A stretch of DNA of 64,000 nucleotides from an uncultured cyanobacterium (GTDB lineage: Bacteria > Acidobacteriota > Vicinamibacteria > Vicinamibacterales > UBA2999): positions 16,822 to 80,821 of the forward strand of contig CAWHWW010000010.1 of the NCBI GenBank assembly GCA_963833135.1, in the 5' to 3' direction. This document shows positions 37,804 to 63,800 of this stretch, piece after piece. Within the stretch, counting starts at the first letter, position 1. Each line of letters begins with the position of its first letter. The notes under the pieces are model-generated. The model saw nothing but the letters and a program-made list of their open reading frames with translations. It had not been told where the DNA came from and searched no databases. Both the position numbers and the translations under genes were made by a program.

Positions 37804-40627
37804 ATGCGTCGCCCTCTGCTGAGCCTCGTCGTCGTGTTCGCCGCGATACTGATCCTGCCGCCTGATGTGCACGCGCAAGCCGCCATTGCCGGAGTCGTGA
37901 AAGACGGGACGGGAGCGTCGCTTCCCGGCGTGACCGTGGAAGCGTCCAGTCCCGCGCTCATTGAACGCGCGCGCAGCGTTGTGAGCGACGGCGCCGGACA
38001 GTACCGCATCATCGATCTGAGCCCGGGCATCTATGACGTGACGTTTACGATCACCGGCTTCAAGCCGATCCGGCGCGCCGGCATCGTGCTCGAGGGCAAC
38101 TTCACCGCACCGGTGAACGTTTCACTCGAAGTGGGCAACGTCAACGAAACCGTCACGGTATTGGGCGAGTCGCCGGTCGTCGACGTGACCAGCAACCGCG
38201 CCACCGTCGTCGTGAACCGCGACATGATGGACGCCATTCCCACCTCGACGCGCAGCTTGCAGGCGCGCGCCTACCTGATTCCCGGCACCATGGTGACGCC
38301 GGTCGGTTCCGGCCAGACCAGCATGACCATTTACGGCTCGCAGGCCGCCGATCAGGTCGTGATGGTGGATGGCATGCGACTCAATCTGCTGGAAGGGCAG
38401 GGACAGTTCAGCGGCATTTACCTGAACGACGGCATGGCCCAGGAGATCTCGTACGACACCGGCGCGCAGAGCGCCGAAGTGGGGCAGGGCGGGCTGCGCG
38501 TGAACATGATTCCGCGTGAGGGCGGCAATCAGTTCAAGGGCATCTTCTTCATCCAGGGCGCCAACGGGCCGCTGGCGAGCGATAACCGGTCGGATGAGGT
38601 CAAGGCGTTTATCCCCGAGCCGCTCGGCCTCGCCTACACGTATGAAATCAACCCGTCGTTTGGCGGTCCGATCATGCGCGACAAGGCCTGGTTCTATTTC
38701 ACCTACAAGCTGTCGGACACCAAGAGCTACACCACGCTGCCGGACCGCAGCCAGGGGACCCAGCAGAACTGGCCCAACTACAGCTACGTGGTTCGCCTCA
38801 CGTGGCAGGCGACCCAGCGCGACAAGTTCCGCGTCTACGTCGACAAGCAGATGAACGGCCAGCGCTATGAAGGCCTCGGCGCCACGACCACGATCGAAGC
38901 GTCTCACCAGCTCTGGACGCCGCGCGGCATGACGCCGCAGTTCAAGTGGATGCAGACCACGACCAACCGGTTGATGCTCGAGGCGGGCATTACGATGTAC
39001 GACCTGAACTTCCGGCGCGAGCCGCAGCCCGGGGTCGGTCCGCTCGACCTGCCGCGATTCGAAGTGGCCTCCGGCGTCAACTCCGGCACCTACGCCGGCA
39101 CGATGGACAGCTGGACGAAGAACTACACGTCGGTGGCGTCGGCGAGCTACGTCACGGGATCGCACACGGTCAAGACCGGCATGAGCTACGGGTGGGGGCG
39201 CCGGATCCGCACGTGGCCCAGTCCCAATCCCGCGGACATCCTGCAGCTGCGCTTCACCAATGGAGCGCCGACGCAGGTGCAGGTCCGCAACACGCCGATC
39301 GACGAGTCGATCGAGCGGATGAACGCCGACCTCGGCTTCTACGCGCAGGACGCGTGGACGATGAACCGCCTGACGCTGAACCTCGGCGCGCGCTACGACT
39401 ACTTCAACGCCGAAGTCCCGGCCTTGTCGGCGCCGGCCAGCTTGTGGGTGGCGGCGCGCGATCGGCCGGCGGTCGAGAACGTGCCGAACTGGCACGACTG
39501 GGCGATCCGCCTCGCGGCGGCCTACGATCTGTTCGGCACCGGCAAGACGGCAATCAAAGTGAACGCGAGCAAGTACGTCGCCTCTGCGGCGCTGGGGTTT
39601 GCCGAAACCTTCAACACACTTGACGGCGGCGACCGAAACGCGCACGTGGAACGACGCCGACGGCAATCGCTCGGTGCTCGACGCGGCCGGCAACCTGCAA
39701 CGCAACGAGATCCTCGGCGGCACCGCCAACTTCGGCCAGGCATCGGGCACCGACCGGCCGGATCCGGCGCTGCAGCGCGAGTACAACTGGGAATACGGCG
39801 CGGTGATCCAGCACGAGCTGTTCCCGCGCGTTTCGGTGTCGGGCGGCTATCACCGCCGGACCTACGGCAACCTTGCCGTCACCGACAACCTGAACCTCGG
39901 CGTGGACGAGTGGTCGCCGTTCACGATTACCGCGCCGCTCGACGATCGCCTGCCCGGCGGCGGCGGTTATCCGATCACGATGTACACGCTGAACGCGAAC
40001 AAGGTCGGCTCGGCCACCGACAACCTGCGCACGTTCTCGACGAAGAACGCGCGCACCTACAACGGCGTGGACCTCAACGTGAACGCGCGTATTGGCGCGT
40101 CGGCGTTCCTGCTCGGCGGCGTCACGCACGAGCGCTCGGTGTCCACCACCTGCGATCAGCGCGACAACCCGAACAGCCTGCGATTCTGCGATTCGGCGGG
40201 CCCCTACCGCACGCTGTTCAAGGTGGCGGGCTCGTACGAGCTGCCGTACAAGATTCAGATCAGCGGCAGCTTCATCTCCCGGCCGGGCATCAGCGTCTCC
40301 GCGAACTACACGGTGACCAGCGCCCTGGCCGGCCGGCCCATCATCGGCAGCACGGCGGGCGCGGCGCAGATCAACGTCAACCTGATCGAGCCGGGCACGA
40401 TGTTCACCGATTACCTCAACACGCTCGATCTGCGCCTGGCGAGGACGTTCACGATTGGCAAGACCAGGCTTCAGGGCCTCCTCGATATCTACAACTTGCT
40501 GAACGCCGGCACGGTGACGACGGTCAATACGACGTTCGGCGCGGTTGCGGCGACCCGCGTCTGGAACAACCCGCAGACGATCCAGACGAGCCGCTACGTG
40601 CGCTTCGGGGCGCAGCTGACCTTCTGA
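37804..40627 (+). CDS. TonB-dependent outer-membrane receptor with N-terminal carboxypeptidase-regulatory-like domain, one frameshift near 39630
   Basis: Signal MRRPLLSLVVVFAAILILPPDVHA. IAGVVKDGTGASLPGVTVEASSP...GQYRIIDLSPGIYDVTFTITGFK. Plug VTVLGESPVVDVTS. Terminal beta-strand RYVRFGAQLTF*. Confidence 0.85.
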
Positions 40628-49623: not shown

Positions 49624-51061
49624 TCACATTGTCTTGAGGAACTCGAGCAGCGCCTCGCGATCCGCCACGGACAATTGGTGACCGTAGGTGTGCCCACCGT
49701 TGCCATTGCCGCGATCGGACGTCTTGAAAAGGACGCCTTGTTTCTCGGCCTCTGGTCCGGACGAGACGAAACCCACGCCCTGGAAGTCGTAGACGTCGTA
49801 GGCGCGATAGAACGCCGCCGGCCGCGGGTCGAGCAGCAGGAGCGCGCGAAGCGTCGGCACCGAACCGTTGTGCAGATACGGTGCCCGCAGCCAGATGCCG
49901 TCGAGCGGCATGCCGGCGTAGCCGTTCGTCTTGCGGAAGTGCGAAAACCTCCAGGGCTTGCCCGTGCCGATGGTGTTCATCATCTTCGCCAGTTCCGGCG
50001 TAAAGGAATTCAGTCGCTCCGGATCGGTCCCGATCTCGGCGATGTCGATCGTCTGTCCCACCTTCGGCTGGCCGACGTCGTGACAGCTTGCACAGTGCTG
50101 CTGATAGAGCGGCCGTCCCGTGCTCGCCAGGGCGGCATTGATGCGGTTGGAAGGATACGAAGGCGGCTTCAGATCGAGAATCCAGTTGGCAATCCGATCG
50201 AGCGCCGCCAGGTCGATGGAGTGCTCCGTCGCGCCGGCGCCTATCGCCGCACTCTTGTTCCGCTCGTCGACCGAATCGTTGTTGCCATCCCAGTGCAGCC
50301 ATAATCCCTGGCGAATCCGCTGATTCCAGAGGGACGGCAGATCGGCGGTGCCGACGCTCGTATCGGAGGCGAAATTCGTCTCGGCCGAGAACATCTCCTT
50401 GTACGGATTGAACGTATCCACACGCCCCGGTCCCTGGGGCGGCCGCTTGTCGAACCAGGCGATGCGCGGGTCACGCTCACGAATGCCCTTCTGCGTGGCG
50501 TTAATCGCGAACAACCGGTAGGTGAGGCCATCGAGGAATCCGAACTCCGGATGCTTCTGCATGGCGGCGACGAGGGTATCGGCGTTGAACCTGGGATCGC
50601 TGGCACAGGCTGACAGGAACCGCGCATAGGCCTGGAGATCCATCTGGTGCGCGGGCATCCCGAGAACGATCTTCGGCGCGGCTCCCGGCGCCTCGCGATA
50701 CTGCGCCGACATGACAGGTCGCGCAGTTCAGTCCCACGCGCGGAACCCAGTCGTTGCTCTTGGACGCGCCCATCGGCAGGTCGCCCTTGGGATTGTCGTA
50801 GGTGAATCCGATGCGCTCGTAGCCGTTCCCAGGGCGATTGGGCAGCTTGTCGGCGAACACTTCGGGCAGCACTTTCCACAGCCAGTAGGGCACCCCGACG
50901 GTTCCCTCGGTCCCGATTGATCCGTACTTGAACTCGGTGGCGATGTCCGGAGTGGACTGGGCTGCCAGGCCAATCCATGCGCAGATCACAATCGCGAAGA
51001 CAATCTTGGTCACGATCCGCGGCGATCCACCGACGCGCGCGCCGTTCTCAACTCGTCTCAT
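49624..51061 (-). CDS. di-haem c-type cytochrome, cytochrome-c-peroxidase/MauG-superfamily-like, one frameshift near 50700
   Basis: Signal or anchor KIVFAIVICAWIGLAA. Two CXXCH sites: GLNCATCHVG (ORF 50501..51061) and QQHCASCHDVG. WLRAPYLHNGSVPTLRALL resembles the CCP-family motif. Confidence 0.6.
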
Positions 51062-51074
51062 CGCGTACTACTCC

Positions 51075-52337
51075 TTACGTTCGAGCGACCGCGGTTGCGA
51101 AGGCGTACGTGATGGCCTCGTTGGTCACGTCGCTATGGTCCTTGATGAGGCCGCCCGAGCCGTCAAGGTTGTTGATGACCTGGCCCTTGAAGTCGTACGG
51201 CGTTCCCGCGGCATTCAGCCGCGAGCTGGCAACTTCCGTCGTCCGCAGCGCTCCATTGCGGCCCAACCCGCCGAATTCGTCGCTTGCGTCGCCGATCGCC
51301 CTCGTGTTGTCGCCGGCGAGACGCGACATGACCGAGTAGGCCTTCCCGACGACGGTGTCCTGGGCGGAGAAGGTCGACAGGAACGGGCCCTTGACGACCT
51401 TTTGAACGATCACGTCGCGGAAAAATCCGGCGCTGCCGTGCCCGTTGTCCGAACTGAAGCCAAAGTGCGAGAACGCCGCCTCGAGCAACATCAGGGAATC
51501 AAGGGGAGTCTTCGGTGCTTCGGCGAGCGCCTTGGCGCACGCCGCCGCCAGGCGGCCGCCCAGGCTGTGTCCCACGACGTGGAGGCGAAGACTCGGCGAG
51601 CTGGCGCGCAGTGTTCGCACCGCTTTGGCGAGGCCCGTGGCGCCTACCGTTCCCGATCGCTCCTTCATCACGTACCACGTCGTCAGGTTCAGGAATTGTC
51701 CGACGCCGCCGGCGATCCTGCCGGCAACGTCGCCGATCCCGCGGGTGCCATCAGCAGGCGGACTCAATCGCGCAAGAATCTCGGAACCTGATCGCTGGCG
51801 GATCCGCGTCAGTCCCTCCGTCGCATCCGCGCCGGAAGCGTCGACCAACGACAACACCAGCTCGACGAATTCGTCTTGCGCTTGCGGATTCGTCTCGAGC
51901 GTGGGCAGAAGTGCGATCGCTTTATCCAGGTTACGGCGCTGCGCGGGCGTCGCGTTGTCGTCCTTGAACTCCTCGAGCTGCGCCTTCGCGTCGGCCAGCG
52001 TGGGCGAAGGATCGTGCAGTCCGCGTGTGCGGCCCGATCCCTCGTCGAAGTCCTCTCGAAACTGCTTCGACGGCCAGTAGACGCCGGCGAAGACAAACTG
52101 CCGGTTGGCCAGCGCGCTGAATTCCGGACGTGAGAGGTTCGCCCTGAATGTCTGCAAGAAACGCGTGTAGAGGTTCGTCGCGTCGTTCTCGTCGTTGCGA
52201 AAGCCGTGCGCGATGAAGACCACATCGGTGGCGGAACTCGCGCGCGCGGCCAGCGCCTCGAATTCCTGCCGCGACTGCAACGTTCCGTGATCATCAAATT
52301 TCAGTGGGAAGAAATCGAATCCGTCGATGGTCGGCAT
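51075..52337 (-). CDS. alpha/beta-hydrolase, DUF900/lipase-like serine esterase
   Basis: VVFIAHGFRNDENDA ... VFAGVYWPSK, and nucleophile elbow LHVVGHSLGGRLAA. Intact 420-aa ORF, 14 nt upstream of the di-haem cytochrome gene. Confidence 0.6.
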   Translation of the reverse strand: MPTIDGFDFFPLKFDDHGTLQSRQEFEALAARASSATDVVFIAHGFRNDENDATNLYTRFLQTFRANLSRPEFSALANRQFVFAGVYWPSKQFREDFDEGSGRTRGLHDPSPTLADAKAQLEEFKDDNATPAQRRNLDKAIALLPTLETNPQAQDEFVELVLSLVDASGADATEGLTRIRQRSGSEILARLSPPADGTRGIGDVAGRIAGGVGQFLNLTTWYVMKERSGTVGATGLAKAVRTLRASSPSLRLHVVGHSLGGRLAAACAKALAEAPKTPLDSLMLLEAAFSHFGFSSDNGHGSAGFFRDVIVQKVVKGPFLSTFSAQDTVVGKAYSVMSRLAGDNTRAIGDASDEFGGLGRNGALRTTEVASSRLNAAGTPYDFKGQVINNLDGSGGLIKDHSDVTNEAITYAFATAVART

Positions 52338-52500
52338 ACGTTCCTCGCTCGCGCCTGCACCAGCTCATCCGGAACGCGACGGCGCAACCGCCATCCTAAC
52401 CGGACTCCGCAACCGTGTCTGCACTGTGATTGAATGGGCCGGGCAGCATCATGCTGAGGTGGCTGGGCCCGCGCCATGAGCGGCCTGACAAGGAGAGGGC

Positions 52501-53469
52501 ATGACCTTCAAGACACCGGCGCTGGCCGAAGAGGCTATCGACCCGGACGAGGCGGCGGTCGCGACGGCGTTCGTCGAGTTTCTCAAGGCGACAAGCACGA
52601 AGCATCACCCCACCGGTACGGTCCCGCGATTCAACCAGGGCCGCGCTGCCGGGTGTGTCGAGGCGGAGTTCATCGTGCCTGACGGCTTGCCGCAGGATCT
52701 TCGTGTCGGCCTCTTCGCTCACCCTCGCACCTACAAGGCGCGCATTCGATTCGCGCACGCCTCATCGGAGTCGGACACGGAGCGCGACGTTCGCGGCATG
52801 TCGATCAAGGTTGCAGGCGTGGGTGGCGAGAATCTGACCCCGGGTGTGGCGGACCACGACTTCATCCTGAACAGTCACCCGGTGATGATGGTGGGGCACA
52901 CCAAGGCCTTTCTCGACTTGCTCAAGGCGGTGGAGGAGGGCGGTGCCGCGCAAGGACTGTTCTTCGTCACACATCCGCGCGCCGCGGCCGTGGCGCTGGC
53001 CTCGCGGCAGCATGCCACCAGTCACCTCGAGATTCCCTACTGGAGCACGACGCCCTACCTCTTCGGGCCGGGCCGGGCGGTCAAATACAGCGTGCGTCCC
53101 GCTTCGCCTCGAAAGACGCCGCTGCCGGACCCGTTGACCGACAACTACTTGCGGGAGCGCCTGGTCGCCCATCTTGCGCGGGAAGAAGCTCGTTTCGAGT
53201 TTCTCGTGCAGTTTCAGACCGACGGCCGGAAGATGCCGATCGAAGACGCGAGCGTGGAATGGAAGGAGGACGACTCCGCGTTCCGCGCGGTCGCCGAAAT
53301 TCGCATCCCCGTCCAAACGCTCGAAGGTCCGAGCGCCGCGTCCTGCGAGCAGCTTTCGTTCAATCCCTGGCACGCCCCGGCGGATCACCGCCCGCTCGGC
53401 GACTTCAACCGCGCGCGCCGTGAGATCTATCGCGCGATGGCGGCTTTTCGTGGGACGCCACGGGCCTGA
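52501..53469 (+). CDS. small catalase-fold haem protein (mini-catalase, y4iL/srpA/AOS-like clade; not a canonical catalase)
   Basis: AAGGAGAGGG RBS. RDVRGMSIKV (cf. catalase D.RGFA.KF). DHDFILNSHPVMMV (cf. D.vgNN.PVFF). Proximal-Tyr-like NRARREIYRAMAAFR. The catalase VHAKG position reads FNQGR by eye. Intact 322 aa. Confidence 0.6.
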   Translation: MTFKTPALAEEAIDPDEAAVATAFVEFLKATSTKHHPTGTVPRFNQGRAAGCVEAEFIVPDGLPQDLRVGLFAHPRTYKARIRFAHASSESDTERDVRGMSIKVAGVGGENLTPGVADHDFILNSHPVMMVGHTKAFLDLLKAVEEGGAAQGLFFVTHPRAAAVALASRQHATSHLEIPYWSTTPYLFGPGRAVKYSVRPASPRKTPLPDPLTDNYLRERLVAHLAREEARFEFLVQFQTDGRKMPIEDASVEWKEDDSAFRAVAEIRIPVQTLEGPSAASCEQLSFNPWHAPADHRPLGDFNRARREIYRAMAAFRGTPRA

Positions 53470-53493: not shown

Positions 53494-54462
53494 ATGAGAA
53501 AAGCACTGATCGTCGGCATCAACTACTACTCACAGATTCCCCGGCTGTATGGCTGCGTGAACGACGCCCATGCGGTGAAAAAAACCCTGGAGCGGAACGG
53601 TGACGGCACGATCAACTTCACCGCCAACCTCTTCACGGCCGACAGCGACGCCGACGCCATCAGCCGCAGCACTCTGAAGCGCCTCGTTCGCGAGCTCTTT
53701 GCCGAAGATCACGAGGTGGCATTGTTGTACTTCGCCGGTCACGGGCACGTGGAGCAAACCGGCGGTTATCTGTGCAGCAGCGATTCCAGTGAGGGAGACG
53801 ACCTCTCGCTCGCCGACGTGATGACGTTTGCCAATGACTCGCCGGCCAAGAACAAGGTGATATTTCTCGACAGCTGCCATTCCGGAATCGCCGGCACGCC
53901 GGCCGGTCAAAAGGCAGCCGAAGTGGCCGAGGGTGTGACCATCCTGACGGCGTCGACCAAGGAACAGTACGCGACCGAGAAGAATGGCAGCGGCGTCTTC
54001 ACGTCGCTACTCGTGGATGCCTTGAACGGCGGAGCATGCGACCTGGTCGGCACAGTTACGCCGGGCGCCGTGTATGCGCACATCGATCAGTCGCTCGGTC
54101 CGTGGGAGCAGCGGCCGGTGTTCAAGACGAATGTGAAGGAGTTCGTTTCGCTGAGGCGCGTGCCCGCGCCCATTCCACTGGAATATCTGCTTCGGCTCAC
54201 CGAGTTCTTCCCGAAGCCGGGGATGAAGTTCGATCTCGATCCGAGTTTTGAGCCCGAGCCGAACGGAAGGCCGCCCGGCGTCGCTCCTCCGGACCCTGAA
54301 AACACCGCGAAGTTCGACGTGCTTCGACAGTTCAACCGCGTCAACCTCCTCGTGCCCGTTGGCGCGCCCCACATGTGGCATGCGGCCATGGAATCAAAGA
54401 GCTGCAAGCTGACGGCGCTCGGCGAGCATTACCGTCGCCTGGTTGAACGGAATCGGATTTGA
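53494..54462 (+). CDS. caspase-fold (peptidase C14) protease with unrecognised ~150-aa C-terminal domain
   Basis: [12 protein letters not shown]...LYGCVNDA. His in LLYFAGHGH. Cys in [13 protein letters not shown]. Intact 322 aa, 25 nt after the mini-catalase stop. Confidence 0.8.
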
Positions 54463-54475
54463 CAGAGCATAAGGA

Positions 54476-54545
54476 GGGCTTGCGGGCTTGCGGGCTACGG
54501 GCTTGCGCGCTGCGGGCTACGGGCTTGCGGGTCACGGGCTTGGGG
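54476..54545. repeat. One-armed tandem array of GGGCTTGC/GGGCTAC words: nine G3+ tracts spaced 3-11 nt (mostly 4-5) on the + (sense) strand
   Basis: Read directly: GGGCTTGCGGGCTTGCGGGCTACGGGCTTGCGCGCTGCGGGCTACGGGCTTGCGGGTCACGGGCTTGGGG. It is preceded by AAGGAGG (54471-54477) and is in frame with the downstream ORF (table ORF 54488..55069). Confidence 0.8.
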
Positions 54546-54562
54546 TCGCCGGAGACCGCGCG

Positions 54563-55069
54563 ATGACACGCATCGGGATTACCGGACATCAACGGTTGGA
54601 CGATGAGACGACATGGCAATGGGTGAGCATCGCCTTGGCTGACGCCGTATCACGGTCACCTCGTCCTTTCGCAGGCCTGAGCTCGCTCGCGATTGGCGCC
54701 GATCAGCTTTTTGCGTCGATCGTGCTCGATCAAGACGGTGCGCTCGAGGTCGTCGTGCCGTTTCCTGACTACCGGAGCCGTTTCGCCGACGAGCAGGATG
54801 CGAAGCGCTACGACGCCTTGTTGTCGCGCGCGTCACGTGTCGAAGTCCTGCCGGCACAAGCGTCCGACGAGAAGGCCTACCTGGCGGCCGGAAAACGAAT
54901 CGTCGATCGCAGCAACGAAATGTTTGCGGTGTGGAATGGTCAGCCAGCCGCCGACGTCGGCGGAACCGGCGATATCGTGCAGTACGCGCGAGAGCGTCGG
55001 ACGCCTCTTGACCGTGTTCAATCCCGTGACCCGGACGGTGCTCCTCCCGGACCGCCGGTTGGCGAATGA
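54563..55069 (+). CDS. stand-alone SLOG/YpsA-like Rossmann-fold protein (putative nucleotide-derivative binding)
   Basis: MTRIGITGHQRL, LSSLAIGADQLFASIVL, EVVVPFPDYRSRF, MFAVWNGQPAADVGGTGDIVQYARERRTPL. This pattern matches my memory of YpsA/DprA-type SLOG motifs (G.TG..., G.A.G.D, vwdG...GGT..v.yA). Alternative TTG start at 54488 inside the repeat. Confidence 0.45.
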   Translation: MTRIGITGHQRLDDETTWQWVSIALADAVSRSPRPFAGLSSLAIGADQLFASIVLDQDGALEVVVPFPDYRSRFADEQDAKRYDALLSRASRVEVLPAQASDEKAYLAAGKRIVDRSNEMFAVWNGQPAADVGGTGDIVQYARERRTPLDRVQSRDPDGAPPGPPVGE

Positions 55070-55091
55070 TTCTCTCTGAGAGAAACCTGTC

Positions 55092-56505
55092 ATGCCTGAA
55101 CTGAGGAAAGTCTTCATCAGCCACTCTCACAAGGACGAACCACTGGCCTCGGCGTTCCGTGACACGCTGAAAAACATCTTCAACAACGTCGACGTCGCTT
55201 TTTCGTCTGACAAGACCGTTGGAGGAGGACCCTCGTCCGGGTCGAACTGGCTCGAGTGGATACACACTCGCATGCGCGACTGTCAGGAGTCACTGCTGTT
55301 GCTGACGCCGTATTCGATACGGCAGCCCTGGCCGATGTGGGAGGCGGGCGCCGTCGGCGGGATGGCGATCATCAATCCGGATCCGGCTGCCGCCCCGTTG
55401 AAGGTGGTGACGCCGATTCGCTTCAACATCGCGCAGGAAGCGCTGCCCGGCCCTTTCGTCGTCACGCAGGCAATCGACGGGCGGGATCCGGAATCGCTCC
55501 GAAAGCTGCTCGGCGATCTGATGAAGCGCTATGACTACGCGGGAACGCCGCAGGCGACCTATAGAGCCGTGCTGAACGATCAGATTCCTTCACTGGCCCA
55601 GACGATCAAAGGCTGGCTCGAAAACTCTCCGCCCATGGTGACCGAGGGGATGGTGATGGAGTGGTGCAGCCGGCTCGATGAACTGCGCGACCAGCGGCGC
55701 AGCTCGGAGGTCCGCTACCTGCACCACTGGATCCGCCTGATGTACGAGGGCCCGCAACAGGAGGAAGCGGACCGGCAGACCTGGAGCCAGACGCCGCGCC
55801 GGGAAACGTGGGACCTGCGCCTGCATTTGCGGCTGGCGCAGAACTACACGATCGCGCAACAGTACAAGGAAGCCATCGAGCAGTATTTGCTCGCGGCGCA
55901 ACTCGCGCCACTCGACGCGTTCGTCCTGCACCGTCTCGCCCAGGTCTATCTCGACGTCGCGGATGCGGACGCTTCGCGGCGGACGATCGATCAAGATCCT
56001 GAACCTCGACAAGGACGCCTTGAAATGGAATGCCGAGATCGCCGGCCTCGAGGGCCGTTATTGGAAGGACCAGGGCCGGAGGCATCAGGCCGAGAGCAAG
56101 CCCCAACAAGCGCAGGAGTCGTTCAGGAAATCGCTGCAGGCGTACGAGGCGGCAATGAACATCGACGGAGTCAAAGTTGATTTCTACATGGCCGACAACG
56201 TCGGGCAGTTGAGCCTGACGCTCGGCGACATCCCGGCTGCCAAGAGAGCCTACGAGCGCGCGCGCGTCGCTCTCGAGAATGTGACCCGCGAGACTGAGAG
56301 CGTGTGGAGCCTTGCGACGCGTGCGACCGCCGCACTGGTGCTGGAGGTTGATGACAAAGAGGCGCTCGACTACCTTGCCCGCATTCGGGAGTTCGAGCCG
56401 ACCGATTCCCAGAAGGCCAGCATCTCCCGGGGGCTGCAGCTGATCAAAAAGGCGCTCGACAAGACGGACGCCGACTATCGGCGCTGGGTCGGTCTGCTCG
56501 GATAG
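55092..56505 (+). CDS. TIR-domain protein fused to a TPR/DUF4071-like helical repeat module, one frameshift near 55985
   Basis: TIR: RKVFISHSHKDEPLASAFRDTL...SLLLLTPYSIRQPWPMWEAGA. Repeats: LRLAQNYTIAQQYKEAIEQYLLAAQLAP, VLHRLAQVYLDV, AEIAGLEGRYWKDQG (resembles the DUF4071 GR.YKD signature), SFRKSLQAYEAAM. Confidence 0.7.
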
Positions 56506-56506
56506 A

Positions 56507-56536
56507 CGGCGCCCGCTACCGTGCGGGCTCCTGCCG
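56507..56536. terminator. Short GC hairpin between convergent operons (GCCCGC-TACCGT-GCGGGC)
   Basis: Read directly at 56511-56528, with flanking CGGC/GCCG extension. It sits in the 33-nt spacer between stops 56505 (+) and 56539 (-). No clear U-tract. Confidence 0.35.
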
Positions 56537-56538
56537 AT

Positions 56539-57608
56539 TCAGTCGCGCTCGCGGGGCATGATCTTGGCTTTCTTTTTTCTGGCCTGCCGCGCGGCGCGGC
56601 GAACCGGTTTCCGGACGGCCCGCGCGCGTGTCGAGGGAGGCGCGATCGTTCGCAGCCGCGGCGCCACACGGGCGGTGGTATCGGCCGCCGGATCCAATAC
56701 GTAGCGGGGCAGGATCCCCTGGGTATAGAGCAACCCGTAGACCAGCGCCTGATTGGTCTTGTGGCCCGGCTTGAACACGTTGTTCTCGAGCCACTCCTTC
56801 GCGTGTGCGAGGCCCCGTCCGAGATCGATGTCGACATCGGCCGAGTGCACCATCGACGCGGGGTCCCCGCCAGGCAACGGCATTGCGTCCTTGGAGAACG
56901 ACAGTTGAACGTTTCCTTCGGCGAACCGCGTGTGCTTCCAGCTGTCGGGATGCGCGGGCAGATCGGCCAGGTCACCGCCGGGGGCGCCATGTCCCGGCGC
57001 GCCGGCAAACTCGCTTGCGCGCGGCATCCGCGCCTTGAGCGCGGCGTATCGAAAAACACGAACGCCCGATCGACGGCGACGTGACGCACGCCGCGCACGA
57101 ATCCGAGGAGCGGGGCCCCATCGAGAACGGTTTCGCGCAGCTTGGCCTCGATGTTCAGAAAGGCCATCTTGGCGGCCGACGTCCAGCGCACGAAAGGCCG
57201 CAGCGTCGATGCCGCTTTTTGGCGCCACAAACGGCGACGCGATCTGCTGCGAGACGATCGAAGCCGTTCGGGAGATCGGTCGTTCCGGGTGCATCGGGCA
57301 CCAGCATCAGCCGCAATACCAGGTCGTCGCCTTCGACGTTCTCCGGAACCCGAATGAAGTCCCGGCGCCGGATCAGTTGCCACGCCGGCCGATGTTGAGG
57401 CGCCGAAAACGTGATGCCGTACACCTGTCCGGCATCGAAGGGCAGCGCGAGCCGGAGCTCGAGCGTCGATTCGTCGGTCTTTCCCTGGAAGAGGAGACGC
57501 GGACCGCCGGAGGCGAAGACGTCGGAGACGCGGATGCTCAGCGGCACCGCCGCGCCAGAGATTTCGATCGCAGCCGTAGAGGATGACGGTCAGCCGTTTC
57601 TCGGTCAC
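56539..57608 (-). CDS. unrecognised protein, last gene of the gasdermin operon, basic C-terminal tail, at least 3 frameshifts
   Basis: GTG 57608 lies 5 nt after GGAGG, which follows the gasdermin TAA. Pieces: PLSIRVSDVFASGGPRLLFQGKTDESTLELRLALPFDAGQVYGITFSAP; AAKMAFLNIEAKLRETVLDGAPLLGFVRGVRHVAVDRAFVFFDT; HSADVDIDLGRGLAHAKEWLENNVFKPGHKTNQALVYGLLYTQGILPRYVLDP; tail RKPVRRAARQARKKKAKI. Confidence 0.5.
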
Positions 57609-57618
57609 CGTCGCCTCC

Positions 57619-58428
57619 TTACTGCGCCACGCGCACGAAGGCGCCGCGAGTCTCGAGAAAGACCGGGCGGCGGGCGGCCCCGCCGGCCGGAGGAAAGGCC
57701 CGCGCCGCCGCTTCTCCGGCGCCCAGTTGCTGCGTCGTCAGGAACTGACCGGATTCGTCGAACACGAGTTGCACGGCCTGAAACGCGAACGCCACCGGTA
57801 CGGCGCCCTCGAAGGCGATTTTCGATTCCATTCCGCTGGCCGTGCCGACGTTGACGCTGCCGCCGACGGCTTGCTGAATGACCGGCACGTCGACCTTGAC
57901 CGTGGCGCCGTTCTCGCCCTGCGCCGCGACGACGATCTTCTTGGTCTTCAAGACCGACGTCACGACATAGACCTCGTCATCGAGCAGCTTCTCCAGCGTG
58001 CCGGCCGGAATGTGCGGGCTGATCCGTCCCGCCTTGACGAATTTTTCGACCGCAAGGACATCGACGACGTCCTCCATCACCGCGGCGTATTGGAAGGTCA
58101 CGGTGCGCGCCTTGTTGAAGGCGACGTCGAGACCAAGCTTGCCGCCGCCGAGCGCCGAGATGAACGCACCGAGGATACTCAACCCGATCGCGACGTTGAC
58201 CTTGCTGGTTTCCTTCCCCTCGATGTCGATGCCCGGATTTCCGTCCCGCCGCACATCAGGTGCGGCGATCTCGCCGGCGTCGACGAGATCCGGCACCATG
58301 CCGAGACGCGTCAGATCCTTCCCGTCACGGTGCATCAGCTCGAGCGGTTGCGCCGATGCGCGCGGAAAACGAAACACACTGAACCCGAAGCTGCGCAGGA
58401 ACGTGATTGACTGATCAGGTCTCGACAT
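57619..58428 (-). CDS. bacterial gasdermin (bGSDM) homolog
   Basis: Intact 269-aa ORF from ATG 58428. FLRSFGFSVFRFPRASAQPLELMHRDGKDLTRLG, VAIGLSILGAFISALGGGKLGLDVAF, VPVIQQAVGGSVNVG, IAFEGAVPVAFAFQAVQLVFDESGQF match the bGSDM consensus as I remember it (GLSILG..I.A.GG.KLGLD; VP.IQ..VGG.V.V; EG.VP..F.FQAV.L). Followed by a ~35-aa tail. It lies 8 nt downstream of a caspase-like gene. Confidence 0.75.
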   Translation of the reverse strand: MSRPDQSITFLRSFGFSVFRFPRASAQPLELMHRDGKDLTRLGMVPDLVDAGEIAAPDVRRDGNPGIDIEGKETSKVNVAIGLSILGAFISALGGGKLGLDVAFNKARTVTFQYAAVMEDVVDVLAVEKFVKAGRISPHIPAGTLEKLLDDEVYVVTSVLKTKKIVVAAQGENGATVKVDVPVIQQAVGGSVNVGTASGMESKIAFEGAVPVAFAFQAVQLVFDESGQFLTTQQLGAGEAAARAFPPAGGAARRPVFLETRGAFVRVAQ

Positions 58429-58436
58429 GTGACACC

Positions 58437-59279
58437 TCAGGCGGAAAACAGCGGCGTTTCGAACCGGGCGGTCCGGCCTTCGAGCTGCGGCACCTGCTCG
58501 AACTTCCTGGTCTTGAGTACGACAGCAGCGCGATCGTGCAGCTGTTTGTAGGTGAGCGCGGCCTTGCCCTTGCGCATGGCCTCGACGAGCGCGAAGGTGA
58601 GCGCGCCGTTGTAGCGGCCGTTGATGAAGGCGTCGGCCGAGGTCTGCGTGTCGCGGCACCCGGTGATGAGCACTTCGGGAAGGTCCGCCTTCACGATGTC
58701 CTTGGTCTTGCGGGCCGCCCGCGAGCGAGCGCCGGAGCTCGCTCGTGACCTTTCTCGGCAGACTCCGTCCGGATTCCACCGCTTTCAGGCTCGCAGGGAC
58801 TCGGGAGGTAGCGTTGCCTGACGGGCGCGTCGGGCGGCAGGAAGGCGCGCGTGTTGGTGCCCGAATGGCAGCAGTCCATGATGACCGTGAGGTTGACGCC
58901 GTCTTTCATCCCGTCGAACGTGGTGCGCAGCCAGTCGTCGCGGAGCGGATCGTCCCAGTCAAGATCGGTCGGGCAGAGGATCTCGTCGCGGCCGTCGGCC
59001 TCGTCGCTGTTGTCGTCGGGCACGTTCGAACCGTGGCCGGAGTAATGAAGGACGGCGACATCGCCCTTCTTCGAGTCGCGCAGCAAGCGCCTTGATTCCG
59101 GCCTCTATCGCCTTCTTCGTTGCCTCGAAGTCGGTGAGCACGGCGATGTCGCTCTTCTTGAAGCCGTAACACTCGACGAGCGCGGAGCTCAGGTCCTCCA
59201 CGTCGTTGACGCACCCCCGGAGATCGGCGCCGTCTATCCGGTATTTGTTGATTCCAATCAGCAACGCTCGCTTAGCCAT
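58437..59279 (-). CDS. caspase-fold (peptidase C14) protease, 2 frameshifts
   Basis: MAKRALLIGINKYRIDGADLRGCVNDV. His in VAVLHYSGHGS. Cys in LTVIMDCCHSGT. C-terminus VLITGCRDTQTSADAFINGRYNGALTFALVEAM. Pieces lie in ORFs 58959.., 58691.., 58437... Confidence 0.8.
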
Positions 59280-61182
59280 TCACACCCTCCCACTCCAACG
59301 GAATGCCGTAACCAGCTGGTCATCGGCGACGGAATCTGATTTGCGCCGGATCGGTCAGCAGGGCGCCCACGCCCTTCGTCGTCACCGTCGAACGGATCAA
59401 GCTCGCTGAGTGAACCGAACGAAAGCCCGGCGCGCTCTTCGATGGTTGCGATCCGTGTCTGCGAGGTCTTGTGCTTCCCGAAGACGAACTCCTCGTCGCG
59501 CAGAAAATCTTCCTGCGACATCGTGTAGCCGGTCGCACACAGCTCCCTGGTCTCGTCGTGGATGAAGGCGATGACTTTCCAGAACGAGCGTGGAATCAGG
59601 ACGCCGTCACGGATCGGATCGTCGGGCATCAGGAACGGTCCCGTCATGACGGAGATGCGCATGTCATCGGACCGCGCGTTGTCGAGCGCGTAGCTCTCGA
59701 GCGCGAGCCAGATGCCGCCGTTGAACGGCTGCATCTGGGGCACGGTGTTCGTCACGTGCATCGAGTCGCTGTTGCCGAGCGCCGCCTCGTCGGGATCGCC
59801 CCAGACCGGGTCTTCGCGACGCGTCATGTGGCCGCGCGAGAACTTCGGCTCGCTCCCATAGCACTCGTCCTTGATTTGCTGCCTGACGGGAATGCGAGGA
59901 TCGAGGCGCCACGAAGGACGCTTGAACCGGCGAGGCGTTGCGCCGTCGATGTTGCCGGCAGCTGAAGATACACAGACGCCGGCTGCGGCTCATCACCACC
60001 GAGAAGTGCTGATACTTGAGCTCCGATTCCTGAGCACCATTCCAGGGGAATGTGAGGACGTCGGCCGCATTGTTCACCAGCGGGCAGTGGCACATCCACT
60101 CCGACAAACCGCGGGTCATACCCCTTGCGCCCGATGTAATCCTCGGGCACGCCTTCGACGAACACCTCGTAACCGGCAGGCGTCCCGGCGTCCGGTGTCG
60201 GCGTGACGATGGCGTGAGGAGTGACGGGACCCTGGGGCGGGCGGCTCGAGGGCTTTCCGGGCTTCGGATGTCGCACTTGTTCGAGGCGCTCCGCAACGAC
60301 CGTCATCGGTACGGCGTAGTTGGTTTCGAGAAAGCGGCCCGCGAAGTGCAATCCGACGGCGTGCCCGGTCCCCAGATCGAGCACGACCGAACCCGAGTTC
60401 CCTCCAAGCGTCGAACAGTCGTGGAGCAGGACATCCGTTTTCGCCTCCGTCACTTGACCCGGAGCCAGGCGCTTCTTGTCGAACACGTCGCCGAAGATCG
60501 ACTGCACCAACTGCTCGTCGGGCGCTCGGCTGTCCCTGGCGGGATATCCGATCACGGCCACCTGCTGCGCGGCGTGAGGCGGTGACACCGAGAGCGGGAT
60601 CGGAGGCGCGAGCGCCTGACCGCGCGATTCGCCCACGCGCAGGAGCGCGAAGTCCGGGCCATCGTCGTCTTCGATGTGCAGGATCTCGACGATCGGGAAC
60701 GAGAGGCGTTCCGGCCGGCCCACTTCTTCGAGGAAGTCGATGGACACGCCGGATGGTGATCCGTCTTCCTTCTTGAACATGAAACGATCGCGCCCTCGTT
60801 GCCCGAACTCACGCGCCACGTGACGATTCGTCACGATGGTGTCCTTCTCCACGAGCCAGCCCGTGCCGACGTACGGCACGCCCGGACGACCGGTGACGTT
60901 GATGCGTCCGACGGCACCCGCCGCGCGCTGCAGCTGCGCGCTCGAGGCCTGAAGACGGGTGCGCCAGACCTCGCTTTCGCTTTCCCTGAATTCCAGTTGT
61001 GCCGCGCCGCCGACGACCGCCAGAACCGGCCGTCCCACGCGAAGCACGATATTTCGAAGGCTCTGACCCGCATCGCGAAGCGAGCGGGTACCGCTGATCT
61101 GTCGGAGTTCGTCGGCGAGCAGCCGATCAGCCGTGTCGAGGGTCGAGATGAGTTGCTTCAGCCATTCGTCGAGGTCTCCCAT
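59258..61182 (-). CDS. fusion protein: N-terminal helical region + trypsin-like serine protease + DNA/RNA non-specific (NucA/EndoG, beta-beta-alpha-Me) endonuclease; at least 2 frameshifts
   Basis: Protease triad: TIVTNRHVAREF (H), GPDFALLRV (D), CSTLGGNSGSVVLD (S). Nuclease: KYQHFSVVMSRSRRLCIFS, hand-read AAGNIDGATPRRFKRPSWRLDPRI...EPKFSRGHMTRREDPVWG, NTVPQMQPFNGGIWLALESYAL. The stop is uncertain (59258 or ~59320). Confidence 0.75.
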
Positions 61183-61202
61183 CGCAGCCTTGCCAGAAGC
61201 GC

Positions 61203-62526
61203 CTATTGAAAGGTCTGCGGACGATAGACGGACAGAATCTGCTCGATCATCGCTTCACGCGACGGGTAGCGGCTTTCGTCGTAGCAGCCGAGCGGGTTCT
61301 CCGGTGCATTCACCAGGCAGCGGTTGCAGTACGTGCACGGGTTCTCCGGCCGGCCGATCCCGTTCGCGAACTGCTGCACGAGATCGTTGTTGGCGATCAG
61401 CGGCCGCGCAATGGTCACCGCGTCGCAGTCGCCACGAGCGATGGCGTCTTCGATGATCGCGGCCGTCTGGAATCCGCCGGTGCACAGCACCGGAATGCTG
61501 CCCACCGCCTGCTTGATCGCGCGGGCATCGTGGAGATTGAGTCCTTCAATCTTGTCCTTCGGACCGCGCGCGTTTTCCCATCGTTTCCTGAACAGTTCCC
61601 CGGTGATCCGCCCGCTGAACAAGATGTAGTTTCTGAGCGCCAGCACGCCGCTCGAGATCAGGCTGTCGTACGTCTTTCGCAGCTCGTCCACCGGCAGATC
61701 GCCGGCCGGATTCTTCGGGTGTGGAAACGAGCTGCCCGGACGACACGTGGATGGCGTCCACGCCGTCTTCCTTCAGCCACTGACAGACCTGGACGGAATC
61801 CTCCACGGTGTTGCCGGGCTTCTCGTCCGACAGCATCGCGTCGTTGAATTCCGTCGCGCTGATCTTCATCTGCAGGTGGAAGTCCCGCCCCACGCGCGCG
61901 CGGATTGCCTGGACGATCTCGCGCACGAACCGTGCGCGGTTGGCGAGCACGCCGCCGTATTCGTCGGTGCGATCGTTGATTGCGGAGCTGAGAAACTGCG
62001 TGATCAAGTAGCCGTTCGCGCCGTGCAGCTCCACGCCGTCGAGGCCCGCCTCGCGCGCGCGTCGTGCACCCTCGGCGAAGGATTGGATCGCTTCCTTGAT
62101 CTCGGCGAGCGTCATCGCTTCGCATTCGAAGCCATGTAGCGGATCACGTTTCCCCGTCGAGCTGAGACCCTTCGGATAGTCGAAGGTCGCGATGTCGCGT
62201 TGCCGGCCGCCATGGCTGAGTTGGAGGATGTACTTGCAGTCGTGTTCGTGCACGGCGTTGCCCAGCGCACGCCAGAACGGAATGCGATCGTCGCTCACGA
62301 TCGTCGCGTAATTCGGCAGGATGCGCCCGCGCTGATGCACCGGCACGAACGACGACACGATGGCGCCGACGCCTCCGCGCGCGAACTTGACTTCCCAGTT
62401 GATGCGCGCCTGCGCGCCAGTGCCATCGTAGTTGTCGAAGCGGCCCGCGATGTTCGATCGCAGAATGCGATTCTTCACCGTCAGATTGCGGAAGCTCAGG
62501 GGCGAAAAAATGCGTTCGTATGGCAT
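61203..62526 (-). CDS. Old Yellow Enzyme-family NAD(P)H:flavin oxidoreductase, frameshifted
   Basis: ATG 62526. MPYERIFSPLSFRNLTVKNRILRSNI, ILQLSHGGRQ, GLDGVELHGANGYLITQFLSSAINDRTDEYGG, DAVTIARPLIANNDLV. C-terminal piece in ORF 61203..61691. Its stop is only 20 nt upstream of the protease-nuclease start. Confidence 0.85.
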
Positions 62527-62636
62527 GGCGGCGCGAATTATATGCGCAAAAGGCGGGTGCACGAATTTCGATCTGTGGCATAGTCTGCGATTCTGCACGC
62601 TGATCATCGAGCACGTGGTTCTGCTGCGAGGGATGA

Positions 62637-63800
62637 ATGACGGACAAGCACCTGAAGGGACCGTGGTACAGGCAGCCGAAGTTGACCGCGATGCCGCAAC
62701 TCGTCGAAATTCGCAACCAGCTCAGGCGTGAGAATCTGCACGATACGGAAGAATCGCCACTTGAAAAGCGAGTTGATACTGCTGAGCCGGATGCCGCGCT
62801 GCGGGAAGAGCGCACCGTCGATGGCTCGTACAACGATCTCGAGCTCCACGCCAAGGCGAAGCTCATCAACTCAGCGCTCATGGCCAAGATCCATACCGTC
62901 GAGTGGACTCCGGCCATCCTGCCGCACCCGGTCACCCAGCTCGCAATGCACGCAAATTGGTACGGCCTGGCGGGCGACGAGCTGCAGGAAGTCCTGAAGT
63001 TTCTAAACGACAACGAGATTCTCGGAGGCATCGTCGGGTCGAAATACGATCACCACACGGCTCCCTACGCGTTCACCGAAGAGTTCGTATCCGTGTACCG
63101 GATGCACCCGCTCATTCCCGACGACGTGGCCATCAGGTCGTTGGACAACGATGCCGTCGCGGAAACGATCGAGCTGCCCGAGCTGTCCGGCCGTAAGGCT
63201 CCCGGCGTCGTGAACCGGATAGGCATGTCCGATTTGTTCTACTCGTTCGGACGGTGTCACCCCGGCGCCATCACCCTGCACAACTACCCGAAGCATCTGC
63301 AGAATCTCAGTCGCGACAACGGTGAACATCTCGACCTCGCCGCCGTAGACATCTTCAGAGATCGGGAACGTGGCGTGCCCCGGTACAACCAGTTCCGCCG
63401 GCTCTTTCACAAGGACCCGGTGAAGTCGTTCGAGGAGCTGACGGACAACCCGGTGTGGCGCGAAGAAATTCGACGCGTCTACGGAAACGATGTGGAGAAG
63501 GTCGACTTGATGACCGGGCTCTATGCCGAACCGCTGCCGCCCGGATTCGGTTTTAGCGATACGGCGTTCCGCGTCTTCGTCCTCATGGCGTCACGACGCC
63601 TGAAGAGCGACCGCTTCTTTACGAACGATTATCGCGCCGAGGTATATACCGAATTCGGACTGAACTACCTGAAGGACAACTCAATGTTAACGGTCTTGAA
63701 GCGACACCATCCGGATTTGGCGCCTGCCCTCCGGGGTGTCGACAATGCCTTCAAGCCATGGCGTAAGGTCGAAGCAGGGGGTGCACATGTCGCGTCGTAA
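62637..63800 (+). CDS. alpha-dioxygenase/COX-type (animal haem peroxidase superfamily) fatty-acid haem dioxygenase homolog, apparently lacking ~230 aa of the N-terminal catalytic half
   Basis: LINSALMAKIHTVEWTPAIL, HHTAPYAFTEEFVSVYRMHPLIPD (cf. plant alpha-DOX PYSLTEEFVSVYRMH.LLP with catalytic Tyr and proximal His), AAVDIFRDRERGVPRYNQFRR, LMASRRLKSDRFFT. The N-terminal LRRENLHDT...RTVDGSYNDLE joins directly to LHAKAKLIN. Confidence 0.7.
   Translation: MTDKHLKGPWYRQPKLTAMPQLVEIRNQLRRENLHDTEESPLEKRVDTAEPDAALREERTVDGSYNDLELHAKAKLINSALMAKIHTVEWTPAILPHPVTQLAMHANWYGLAGDELQEVLKFLNDNEILGGIVGSKYDHHTAPYAFTEEFVSVYRMHPLIPDDVAIRSLDNDAVAETIELPELSGRKAPGVVNRIGMSDLFYSFGRCHPGAITLHNYPKHLQNLSRDNGEHLDLAAVDIFRDRERGVPRYNQFRRLFHKDPVKSFEELTDNPVWREEIRRVYGNDVEKVDLMTGLYAEPLPPGFGFSDTAFRVFVLMASRRLKSDRFFTNDYRAEVYTEFGLNYLKDNSMLTVLKRHHPDLAPALRGVDNAFKPWRKVEAGGAHVAS

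Follow-up and report, generated by a model that had tools for sequence, protein, structure and literature searches.

The question raised by this locus is whether an intact open reading frame (ORF) of 269 codons encodes a bacterial gasdermin (bGSDM), and whether the gene directly upstream, which reads as a caspase-like protease broken into pieces, encodes the enzyme that activates it. Both genes lie on the minus strand of a stretch of 64,000 nucleotides (assembly GCA_963833135.1, contig CAWHWW010000010.1, positions 16,822 to 80,821), which was analysed at its full length and is referred to as the window. The pairing had been proposed in an earlier note made from the sequence. We conclude that the locus probably is a two-gene gasdermin system, protease-activated and pore-forming, within a longer chromosomal operon of an uncultured soil member of the Vicinamibacterales. 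Established here are the identities of the two products, the adjacency of their genes and the fact that the pair is conserved; the frameshifts in the protease gene are almost certainly artefacts.

The uninterrupted ORF starts with MSRPDQSITF and ends with VRVAQ, and its product is a bacterial gasdermin. Residues 1–264 align with positions 1–254 of the 257 positions of the PADLOC bGSDM profile (E 1.3e-67), and the NCBIfam equivalog model NF051890 (prok_gasdermin) gives 185.9 bits against a cutoff of 100. The three gasdermin consensus blocks that the earlier note had listed are all found (GLSILGAFISALGGGKLGLD, VPVIQQAVGGSVNV and EGAVPVAFAFQAVQLVFD). In a sequence search of the PDB the best match was the Vitiosangium bGSDM (7n51, E 2.6e-33; 8sl0, E 1.1e-32), followed by the proteins of Runella (7n52) and Bradyrhizobium (7n50). 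An AlphaFold2 model was built from 37 homologues (predicted local distance difference test score, pLDDT, 61.3; predicted template modelling score, pTM, 0.61). When this model was compared with the PDB by Foldseek, the top 23 matches were all gasdermins: 7n51 ranked first (E 4.5e-15, template modelling score, TM, 0.61), then 7n52, 7n50 and 8sl0, and after these the eukaryotic (placozoan and mammalian) gasdermins. Profile and structure searches, which the earlier note had named as the way to check the assignment, thus both return gasdermins. A scan of our local copy of Pfam-A at E 0.01 gave no match for the protein, presumably because the model PF26164 (Bact_GSDM) is missing from that copy. This was not taken as absence, since the homologues carry PF26164 (a precomputed match on all 120 homologues among the matches listed) and matches in the other libraries are strong.

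Searched exhaustively with HMMER, 1.84 billion cluster representatives contained 907 gasdermin relatives at E<=1e-3, 475 of them at E<=1e-10, which makes the family a large and established one. The exact sequence from the window has no database record, and a protein that is 91% identical (P0002) was substituted for it. Some cluster representatives (P0263, P0268, P0270, P0278, P0288, P0292, P0311 and P0351) carry an N-terminal bGSDM domain within proteins of 600–950 residues, and these large C-terminal fusions contrast with the canonical bacterial gasdermin of ∼265 residues.

The upstream gene ends with a TGA (58437–58439) 8 nucleotides ahead of the gasdermin ATG on the same strand, which is the spacing given in the earlier note, and the gap contains a Shine-Dalgarno-like GAGG. 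The HYSGHG and DCCHSG motifs reported there were likewise located in this gene. As given, the gene is not a single ORF and falls into four pieces in three frames; the three fragments that were scanned each exceed the threshold of Pfam PF00656 (4.2e-09, 6.5e-10 and 5.2e-07), and an intact 279-residue orthologue reaches 1.2e-34. Alignment with two relatives (L001 and L005; the related loci are numbered with the prefix L) placed single-base insertions at 59086, 58793 and 58725. Together the insertions add up to +3, which brings the frame back, and their removal yields a protein of 279 residues without a stop. The earlier note had spoken of a frameshift-corrected caspase; a correction is indeed needed, and the number of frameshifts is three. 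In four relatives that are fully syntenic at ∼85% DNA identity (L001–L004), an intact 279-residue Peptidase_C14 is followed after 9 nucleotides by a Bact_GSDM protein of 269 residues.

The three frameshifts are most likely errors of sequencing or assembly, the gene of the organism being intact, because the same kind of break occurs throughout the window, consists of +1 insertions only in the genes compared with L001, and because the corrected caspase has lost none of the residues shared by all 32 orthologues. In ten genes syntenic with L001, all ten frame-breaking indels were +1 insertions (one in the gene for the oxidoreductase of the old yellow enzyme (OYE) type, three in the Trypsin_2-Endonuclease_NS fusion, three in the C14 gene, and one each in the TIR-TPR, 171-residue and RoxA-like genes), none was a 1-nucleotide deletion, and the remaining indels were multiples of three. 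Rates of frame switching were estimated over the whole 64 kb with a frame hidden Markov model based on GC3 (G+C content at third codon positions). Same-strand switches occurred at 1.38 per kb in the window, compared with 0.13–0.29 per kb in short-read contigs of the relatives, a rate ∼5–10 times higher, and with ∼1.0 per kb in long-read contigs of metagenome-assembled genomes (MAGs). Genes of housekeeping type (MutM, a TonB-type receptor, an S9 peptidase and kynureninase) are broken as well; examples of frame breaks lie at 39650, 28412, 45177 and ∼48150. Claims of pseudogenes or frameshifts anywhere in this window are to be discounted.

The corrected product is a metacaspase-like C14 caspase-family protease in which the catalytic dyad is His/Cys and the S1 pocket acidic. 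Its closest matches in the PDB were the metacaspases Yca1 of yeast (4f6o, 1.1e-29), AtMC4 of Arabidopsis (6w8s, 7.5e-29) and T. brucei MCA2 (TbMCA2; 4afr, 2.7e-20). The p10 region appears as a second HMMER domain, residues 199–265, which aligns with residues 272–336 of Yca1 and 338–406 of AtMC4, and the alignment pairs GCVND, YSGHG and DCCHSG with identical motifs of Yca1. Residues of TbMCA2 were mapped by motif offset from the catalytic dyad, not by direct alignment; mapped in this way, equivalents of the S1-pocket residues Cys92, Asp95, Ser156 and Asp211 are present. In TbMCA2 the two aspartates of this pocket accommodate basic P1 residues, and metacaspases have a strict preference for Arg or Lys (PMC4357240, PMC6426788). 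Since the protease is metacaspase-like and has an acidic S1 pocket, it is predicted to cleave after a basic residue. An Arg is found where Yca1 has Asp at Cys+7, and the linker between p20 and p10 contains arginines that are invariant in the 32 orthologues and are candidate autoprocessing sites. Assignment to the EACC1-type caspases (NCBIfam NF047832, caspase_w_EACC1) was rejected, the intact orthologue scoring 56.8 bits against a cutoff of 140.

Past the last conserved strand the gasdermin continues with the tail TTQQLGAGEAAARAFPPAGGAARRPVFLETRGAFVRVAQ. The earlier note had described a tail of ∼35 residues at this place; the tail is present, and its length is 39 residues. In an alignment of 37 homologues (63–90% identity) it consists of a block ending at Arg243, a linker that varies and a hydrophobic C-terminal block that is conserved, and this layout fits the position of an autoinhibitory peptide as the note had suggested. 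Arg243 closes the conserved block FLTTQQLpAGdAAAR and is kept in 36 of the 37 sequences. The linker behind it varies in sequence and has a length of ∼9–20 residues, and the terminal block, (R)xPVFLExRGAFVRV, is conserved with G262, F264 and R266 invariant. Over a wider set of 41 sequences, which includes 40 divergent cluster representatives (27–47% identity), the column of Arg243 holds Arg or Lys in 25.

Bacterial gasdermins are kept inactive by a C-terminal peptide of 20–30 residues (Johnson et al., Science 2022; 10.1101/2021.06.07.447441). The protease cuts a flexible loop of ∼12 residues just before the inhibitory peptide, and bGSDM truncated of the peptide is toxic (Johnson et al., 10.1101/2021.06.07.447441). 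Because of this architecture of bGSDM tails and the Arg/Lys specificity expected of a metacaspase-like protease, the activating cut is predicted after Arg243 (AAAR/AFPPAG), where it would probably free a peptide of 26 residues (57622–57699). Residues 254–269 within it are predicted to be the autoinhibitory peptide, on the model of the C-terminal peptides found in the bGSDMs of Bradyrhizobium and Vitiosangium. The compact, sensor-free pair (279 + 269 residues) offers a concrete prediction of the cleavage site, AAAR243/A, and if this is true, a metacaspase-type activator with P1 Arg would widen the known ways of licensing bacterial gasdermins.

The gasdermin of the window contains no cysteine at all, in agreement with the earlier note, which had pointed to the lack of an N-terminal one. 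The whole close clade (37 homologues) begins with MSRPDQS and has R-P-D-Q where relatives have the palmitoylated Cys (C-x-D-P); an entire clade of gasdermins is thus without the palmitoylated cysteine. Among 40 divergent representatives a Cys occurs within the first eight residues in 21 and is lacking in 19, so that the trait is common, and one bGSDM without an N-terminal Cys has been reported (Johnson et al., 10.1101/2021.06.07.447441). The missing Cys does not disqualify the protein, as the residue is common in bGSDMs and not universal.

In the window and in L001–L004 the same-strand gene order is OYE-type oxidoreductase, Trypsin_2-Endonuclease_NS fusion, C14 protease, gasdermin and a conserved protein of ∼354 residues (F354). 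The 279-residue C14 gene stands upstream of the gasdermin gene in all 19 metagenome loci with enough sequence, and likewise in L001–L006, L008 and L015. We surveyed 61 metagenome loci seeded on F354 and tallied the gene immediately upstream of it. This was the gasdermin in 31 loci, in six of which a gene for an M15 peptidase precedes the gasdermin; M15 alone was found in 5, C14 directly in 12, the OYE gene directly, without protease, in 4 and another gene in 5, and in the last 4 the contig was too short. Loci reached through F354, such as L018 and L020, often have F354 directly behind the 279-residue C14, with no gasdermin in between. The slot behind the sensor-less protease variably holds gasdermin, M15, both or neither. 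Given the invariable C14 upstream of the gasdermin and the alternative occupants, the gasdermin is therefore an interchangeable insert behind the protease; conversely, the C14 protease is not dedicated to gasdermin, because C14-F354 and C14-M15-F354 loci without gasdermin exist. The variable slot of the related loci is of more interest than the gasdermin-protease pair itself.

From these observations we infer cleavage and its site, pore formation, a trigger and a role in defence, as follows. The gasdermin would be produced as an autoinhibited monomer with its last 16–26 residues (PVFLExRGAFVRV) folded back over the core. Once activated, the 279-residue p20/p10 metacaspase-type protease would cut the flexible region before the C-terminal peptide, likeliest after Arg243, and the released N-terminal fragment would oligomerise into large pores in the inner membrane. 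The pores would then kill the cell, by abortive infection or programmed lysis. Several points weigh against this reading. The protease gene is untranslatable as given, and the AlphaFold2 model of the gasdermin is of moderate confidence only, its tail (residues 234–269, pLDDT below 50) being uninformative. The Arg243 site is predicted from conservation and from the specificity of the protease family. In the bGSDM literature surveyed, the one cleavage site mapped experimentally is that of the Runella bGSDM, which is cut by a CHAT protease and has a P1 Leu (Johnson et al., 10.1101/2021.06.07.447441); the specificity of caspase-family proteases in bGSDM systems can thus be atypical. A domain scan of the window protease found no repeat, NACHT or other sensor domain, and three of the four TbMCA2 Ca2+-site aspartates (Asp173, 189, 190 and 220) are matched by offset (GRDE, RDD). 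Finally, among the more distant gasdermins of the clade, some stand beside no recognisable protease (L007, L011–L014) and others pair with a different, longer C14 protease (L009, L010). The AAAR motif is still kept in these distant members with another or no adjacent protease. In L009, L010 and L017 a C14 protein of 574–711 residues occurs together with S8 or CHAT-C11 proteases.

Three other explanations were weighed against the protease-activated pair. If the locus were decaying, the caspase would be a true pseudogene and the gasdermin an orphan, inert or under another protease. This would account for a protease that cannot be translated as given and for the breaks in the protease-nuclease fusion and in F354; we regard it as highly improbable, since the breaks are equally dense over 64 kb, MutM and other housekeeping genes included, all ten indels are +1 with no deletion, the three in the protease gene sum to +3, and the corrected protein has no premature stop and keeps all residues invariant in the 32 orthologues. 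It is also unlikely that a different protease encoded in the island (the trypsin domain of the fusion, or the second caspase next to the TIR-TPR-S protein) activates the gasdermin, with the C14 protease serving other substrates such as F354 or M15. The trypsin triad motifs of the fusion are intact, a Lysobacter bGSDM is activated by trypsin-like proteases (PMC10312443), and C14 is found with F354 in 12 of the 61 loci, and with M15 and F354 in 5, where gasdermin is absent. Yet in the 19 resolvable loci the gasdermin of this clade never occurs without the 279-residue C14 upstream, the fusion is missing from L008, L054, L056 and L064 where C14 and gasdermin are both present, the module that contains the second caspase is confined to the window lineage, and the basic residue conserved where the cut is predicted suits an Arg/Lys-specific metacaspase.

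With the molecular mechanism left the same, the operon might instead be a chromosomal module for programmed lysis or development (e.g. release of DNA or cell contents), in which the gasdermin acts like a holin and not against phages. In many Vicinamibacterales contigs the cassette is found at a single conserved place in the chromosome, behind the OYE gene; gasdermin relatives were not found in plasmid and phage collections, and integrase or mobile-element genes were not seen in the flanks examined. The M15 peptidase and the nuclease, moreover, resemble a lysis toolkit. On the other hand, domains of defence type abound nearby (TIR, TPR-S, CHAT, nSTAND1, SLOG-like and ankyrin PDC-M72A), and the cassette is present in some loci and absent from others, a pattern typical of defence islands, so that we consider a purely lytic or developmental role rather unlikely. 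The protease-activated gasdermin pair remains our preferred reading, and the positions of its parts and neighbours are collected in the table.

Features of the gasdermin locus and of related loci. Positions are those of the window, except for the M15 genes, which are numbered within their own loci.
Feature	Position	Strand	Basis
Bacterial gasdermin (bGSDM) coding sequence, 269 residues, intact, no Cys	57619..58428	(-)	profiles, PDB sequence match, Foldseek
Conserved C-terminal block RPVFLETRGAFVRVAQ, residues 254-269, predicted autoinhibitory peptide	57622..57669	(-)	alignment and analogy
Variable linker, residues 244-253, presumed flexible protease-accessible loop	57670..57699	(-)	alignment and AlphaFold2 pLDDT
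AAAR motif, residues 240-243, Arg243 the predicted P1	57700..57711	(-)	conservation; cleavage inferred
Peptidase_C14 (metacaspase-like) gene, 279 residues after removal of three single-base insertions	58437..59279	(-)	PF00656 and relatives
DCCHSG, catalytic Cys motif, includes the Asp equivalent to TbMCA2 Asp211 (S1 pocket)	58859..58876	(-)	alignment
HYSGHG, catalytic His motif, includes the Ser equivalent to TbMCA2 Ser156	59030..59047	(-)	alignment
Trypsin_2 and Endonuclease_NS (NucA/EndoG-type) fusion, ~621 residues, three +1 insertions	59320..61182	(-)	domain matches, motifs
F354, conserved protein of ~354 residues, at least three frameshifts	56539..57608	(-)	family alignment
TIR_2 and TPR-S protein	55092..56505	(+)	domain match
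SLOG-like protein, 171 residues, weak YpsA match	54563..55079	(+)	profile match
Second C14 caspase (C14b), intact, C-terminal extension, 325 residues	53494..54462	(+)	domain match
M15 gene, examples in related loci	L034 3376-4028; L040 6497-7171; L063 7292-8003; also L058, L044, L019, L057

F354 starts with a GTG 10 nucleotides past the gasdermin stop and behind AGGAGG, and in the related loci it always follows tightly on the preceding gene, whether this encodes gasdermin, M15, C14 or OYE. The family is large and strongly conserved (>470 matches). The protein has an N-terminal beta-sandwich, a His/Asp-rich core with the invariant motifs APGH, HPDSWKH, HSADVDIDLGRGLAH and PGHKT, and a variable Arg/Lys-rich C-terminal tail. 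F354 gave no Pfam match and a sequence search of the PDB was empty; its AlphaFold2 model is of moderate quality and becomes poor at the conserved His/Asp motifs, and Foldseek finds only a transthyretin-like N-terminal beta-sandwich. The uncharacterised F354 looks like a metal-dependent enzyme. The four loci in which it directly follows OYE favour a mere chromosomal flank, while the tight spacing and in-frame fusions of M15 to F354 (L019, L044 and L057) favour linkage. The M15 product is a VanY/Peptidase_M15_4-like peptidoglycan peptidase of ∼200 residues with a basic tail of its own; in related loci its gene separates the caspase from the gasdermin or F354, and it is absent from the window. 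A gasdermin next to a wall peptidase recalls a holin-endolysin pair.

The fusion directly upstream of the caspase is kept in most, not all, related loci. It joins a V8/Trypsin_2-like serine protease via a Pro-rich linker to a nuclease of the NucA/Serratia/EndoG type, and the trypsin H/D/S triad motifs as well as the RGH and TNTVPQ...ALE motifs of the nuclease are readable. It may be a nuclease zymogen, either self-contained or controlled by the caspase.

Synteny and gene fusions suggest a functional coupling among C14, gasdermin, M15, F354 and the protease-nuclease fusion. In a broader and more tentative proposal, which we think possible and still doubtful, the sensor-less 279-residue metacaspase would be the hub of a combinatorial death cassette with several effectors. 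It would license a number of latent, tail-bearing effectors encoded around it (the gasdermin, the M15/VanY-type peptidase, F354 and possibly the protease-nuclease fusion), and the trigger would come in trans from neighbouring TPR-S proteins (CHAT-TPR-S or TIR-TPR-S), possibly via a protease cascade. If true, one proteolytic switch would join pyroptosis-like pores, endolysin-like breakdown of the wall and apoptosis-like destruction of DNA; should the protease control all effectors of the slot, this would be a simple model of how several death effectors are bundled under a single switch. Loci with the caspase-F354 core also carry giant DUF7379-CHAT(-TPR-S) genes, TIR_2 genes and nSTAND1 ATPase genes (L018 1461–5070, L020 9115–15780, L005 14752–16293); the sensor or initiator that the caspase itself lacks may be among their products.

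Operons that combine a gasdermin with a protease are known, as the earlier note had stated. Proteases adjoin 43 of 50 bGSDMs, 15 of them Peptidase_C14 and 23 CHAT, and only some are fused to repeat or NACHT domains (Johnson et al., 10.1101/2021.06.07.447441). With 15 such cases counted and fused domains in only some proteases, a bGSDM beside a stand-alone C14 protease is a described configuration, and standard defence-annotation profiles (PADLOC) recognise both genes. The pair is thus another bGSDM and C14 operon of an already described kind, from a poorly studied soil phylum. It resembles the Runella zeae system of bGSDM and Roc-COR-CHAT in having a gasdermin of ∼265 residues with a short C-terminal inhibitory peptide and an adjacent caspase-family protease; in the Runella system cutting of the loop ahead of the peptide brings about pores and the death of the cell. 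The Runella protease, however, is a large CHAT protein with sensor domains that cuts after Leu247, whereas the protease of the window is a stand-alone C14 of 279 residues with a predicted P1 at Arg243, and the Runella gasdermin is palmitoylated at Cys3, a residue type that the window gasdermin lacks altogether. The Vitiosangium bGSDM (7n51, inactive; 8sl0 and 9a84, pores) is the nearest structure both by sequence (residues 5–252 aligned to 6–248) and by fold; the two proteins share their overall length and the position of the C-terminal peptide, but Cys4 of Vitiosangium is palmitoylated where the window protein has Arg3/Pro4, and the tail sequences are unrelated.

The CARD-type gasdermin operon of Lysobacter (Wein et al., PMC10312443) also includes a gene for a trypsin-like protease. 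It encodes two CARD-trypsin proteases and a STAND ATPase sensor, in contrast to the trypsin domain of the window, which is fused to Endonuclease_NS. No ATPase was found between the OYE and TIR-TPR genes in the window or in L001, and assignment to the CARD/NLR-type gasdermin systems was rejected on this ground. With the metacaspases Yca1 (4f6o), AtMC4 (6w8s) and TbMCA2 (4afr) the protease shares the p20/p10 organisation, the GCxND, SGHG and DxCHSG motifs and the acidic S1 pocket. An acidic DE.DGRDE / RDD loop lies at the position of the metacaspase Ca2+ site, with the fourth Ca2+-site Asp unmatched. Unlike those metacaspases, the protease has no N-terminal prodomain and has a gasdermin partner. 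The overall logic matches the widespread prokaryotic protease-effector modules (Evans et al. 2025, PMC12642450; Tuck et al. [quoted passage not shown]

All 11 loci from the genome collection belong to Acidobacteriota MAGs, mostly Vicinamibacterales (Vicinamibacterales, Vicinamibacteraceae, Luteitalea and one Bryobacteraceae (52%)), which supports the Acidobacteriota-like host suggested in the earlier note. Convergent to the gasdermin operon lies a module of TIR-TPR-S, SLOG-like and C14b genes (53494..56505, plus strand). It is limited to the window and L001–L004 and is absent from the other gasdermin loci, and because of this confinement to the window lineage it was counted as a neighbour, not among the components. 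A role as upstream activator of the gasdermin was rejected for the same lack of conservation with gasdermin beyond that lineage. By gene makeup the module, with its TIR protein and a C14 caspase that has a C-terminal extension, recalls the signalling from TIR to caspase in type IV Thoeris, which combines TIR with an Arg-specific caspase-like protease (10.1101/2024.10.24.620036); unlike there, the TIR domain of the window is fused to TPR-S and the SLOG-like gene stands between TIR and caspase. The caspase-like protease of type IV Thoeris is Arg-specific and prefers small residues around the site (10.1101/2024.10.24.620036), and together with the Arg-specific caspase-like proteases of type III CRISPR it provides a precedent for Arg specificity and for protease cascades.

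A scan for promoters and terminators over 56300–62700 gave nothing above shuffled expectation. In L001–L004 a DUF5995 gene follows F354 (11888–12670 in L001), the corresponding place in the window (56505–56539) being without it; the gene recurs near the cassette in L005, L018, L055 and L067. The flanks of the locus (49624–53469 and 61203–63800) resemble an oxylipin-type enzyme set. The conserved flanking genes encode an animal-haem-peroxidase-like protein, the OYE reductase, a catalase-related protein of 322 residues, a class-3-lipase-like alpha/beta hydrolase and a RoxA-like dihaem cytochrome. The peroxidase-like gene of the window matches its L001 orthologue only over residues 3–16, 29–100 and 297–620 (62549–63797), ∼196 residues apparently being missing.

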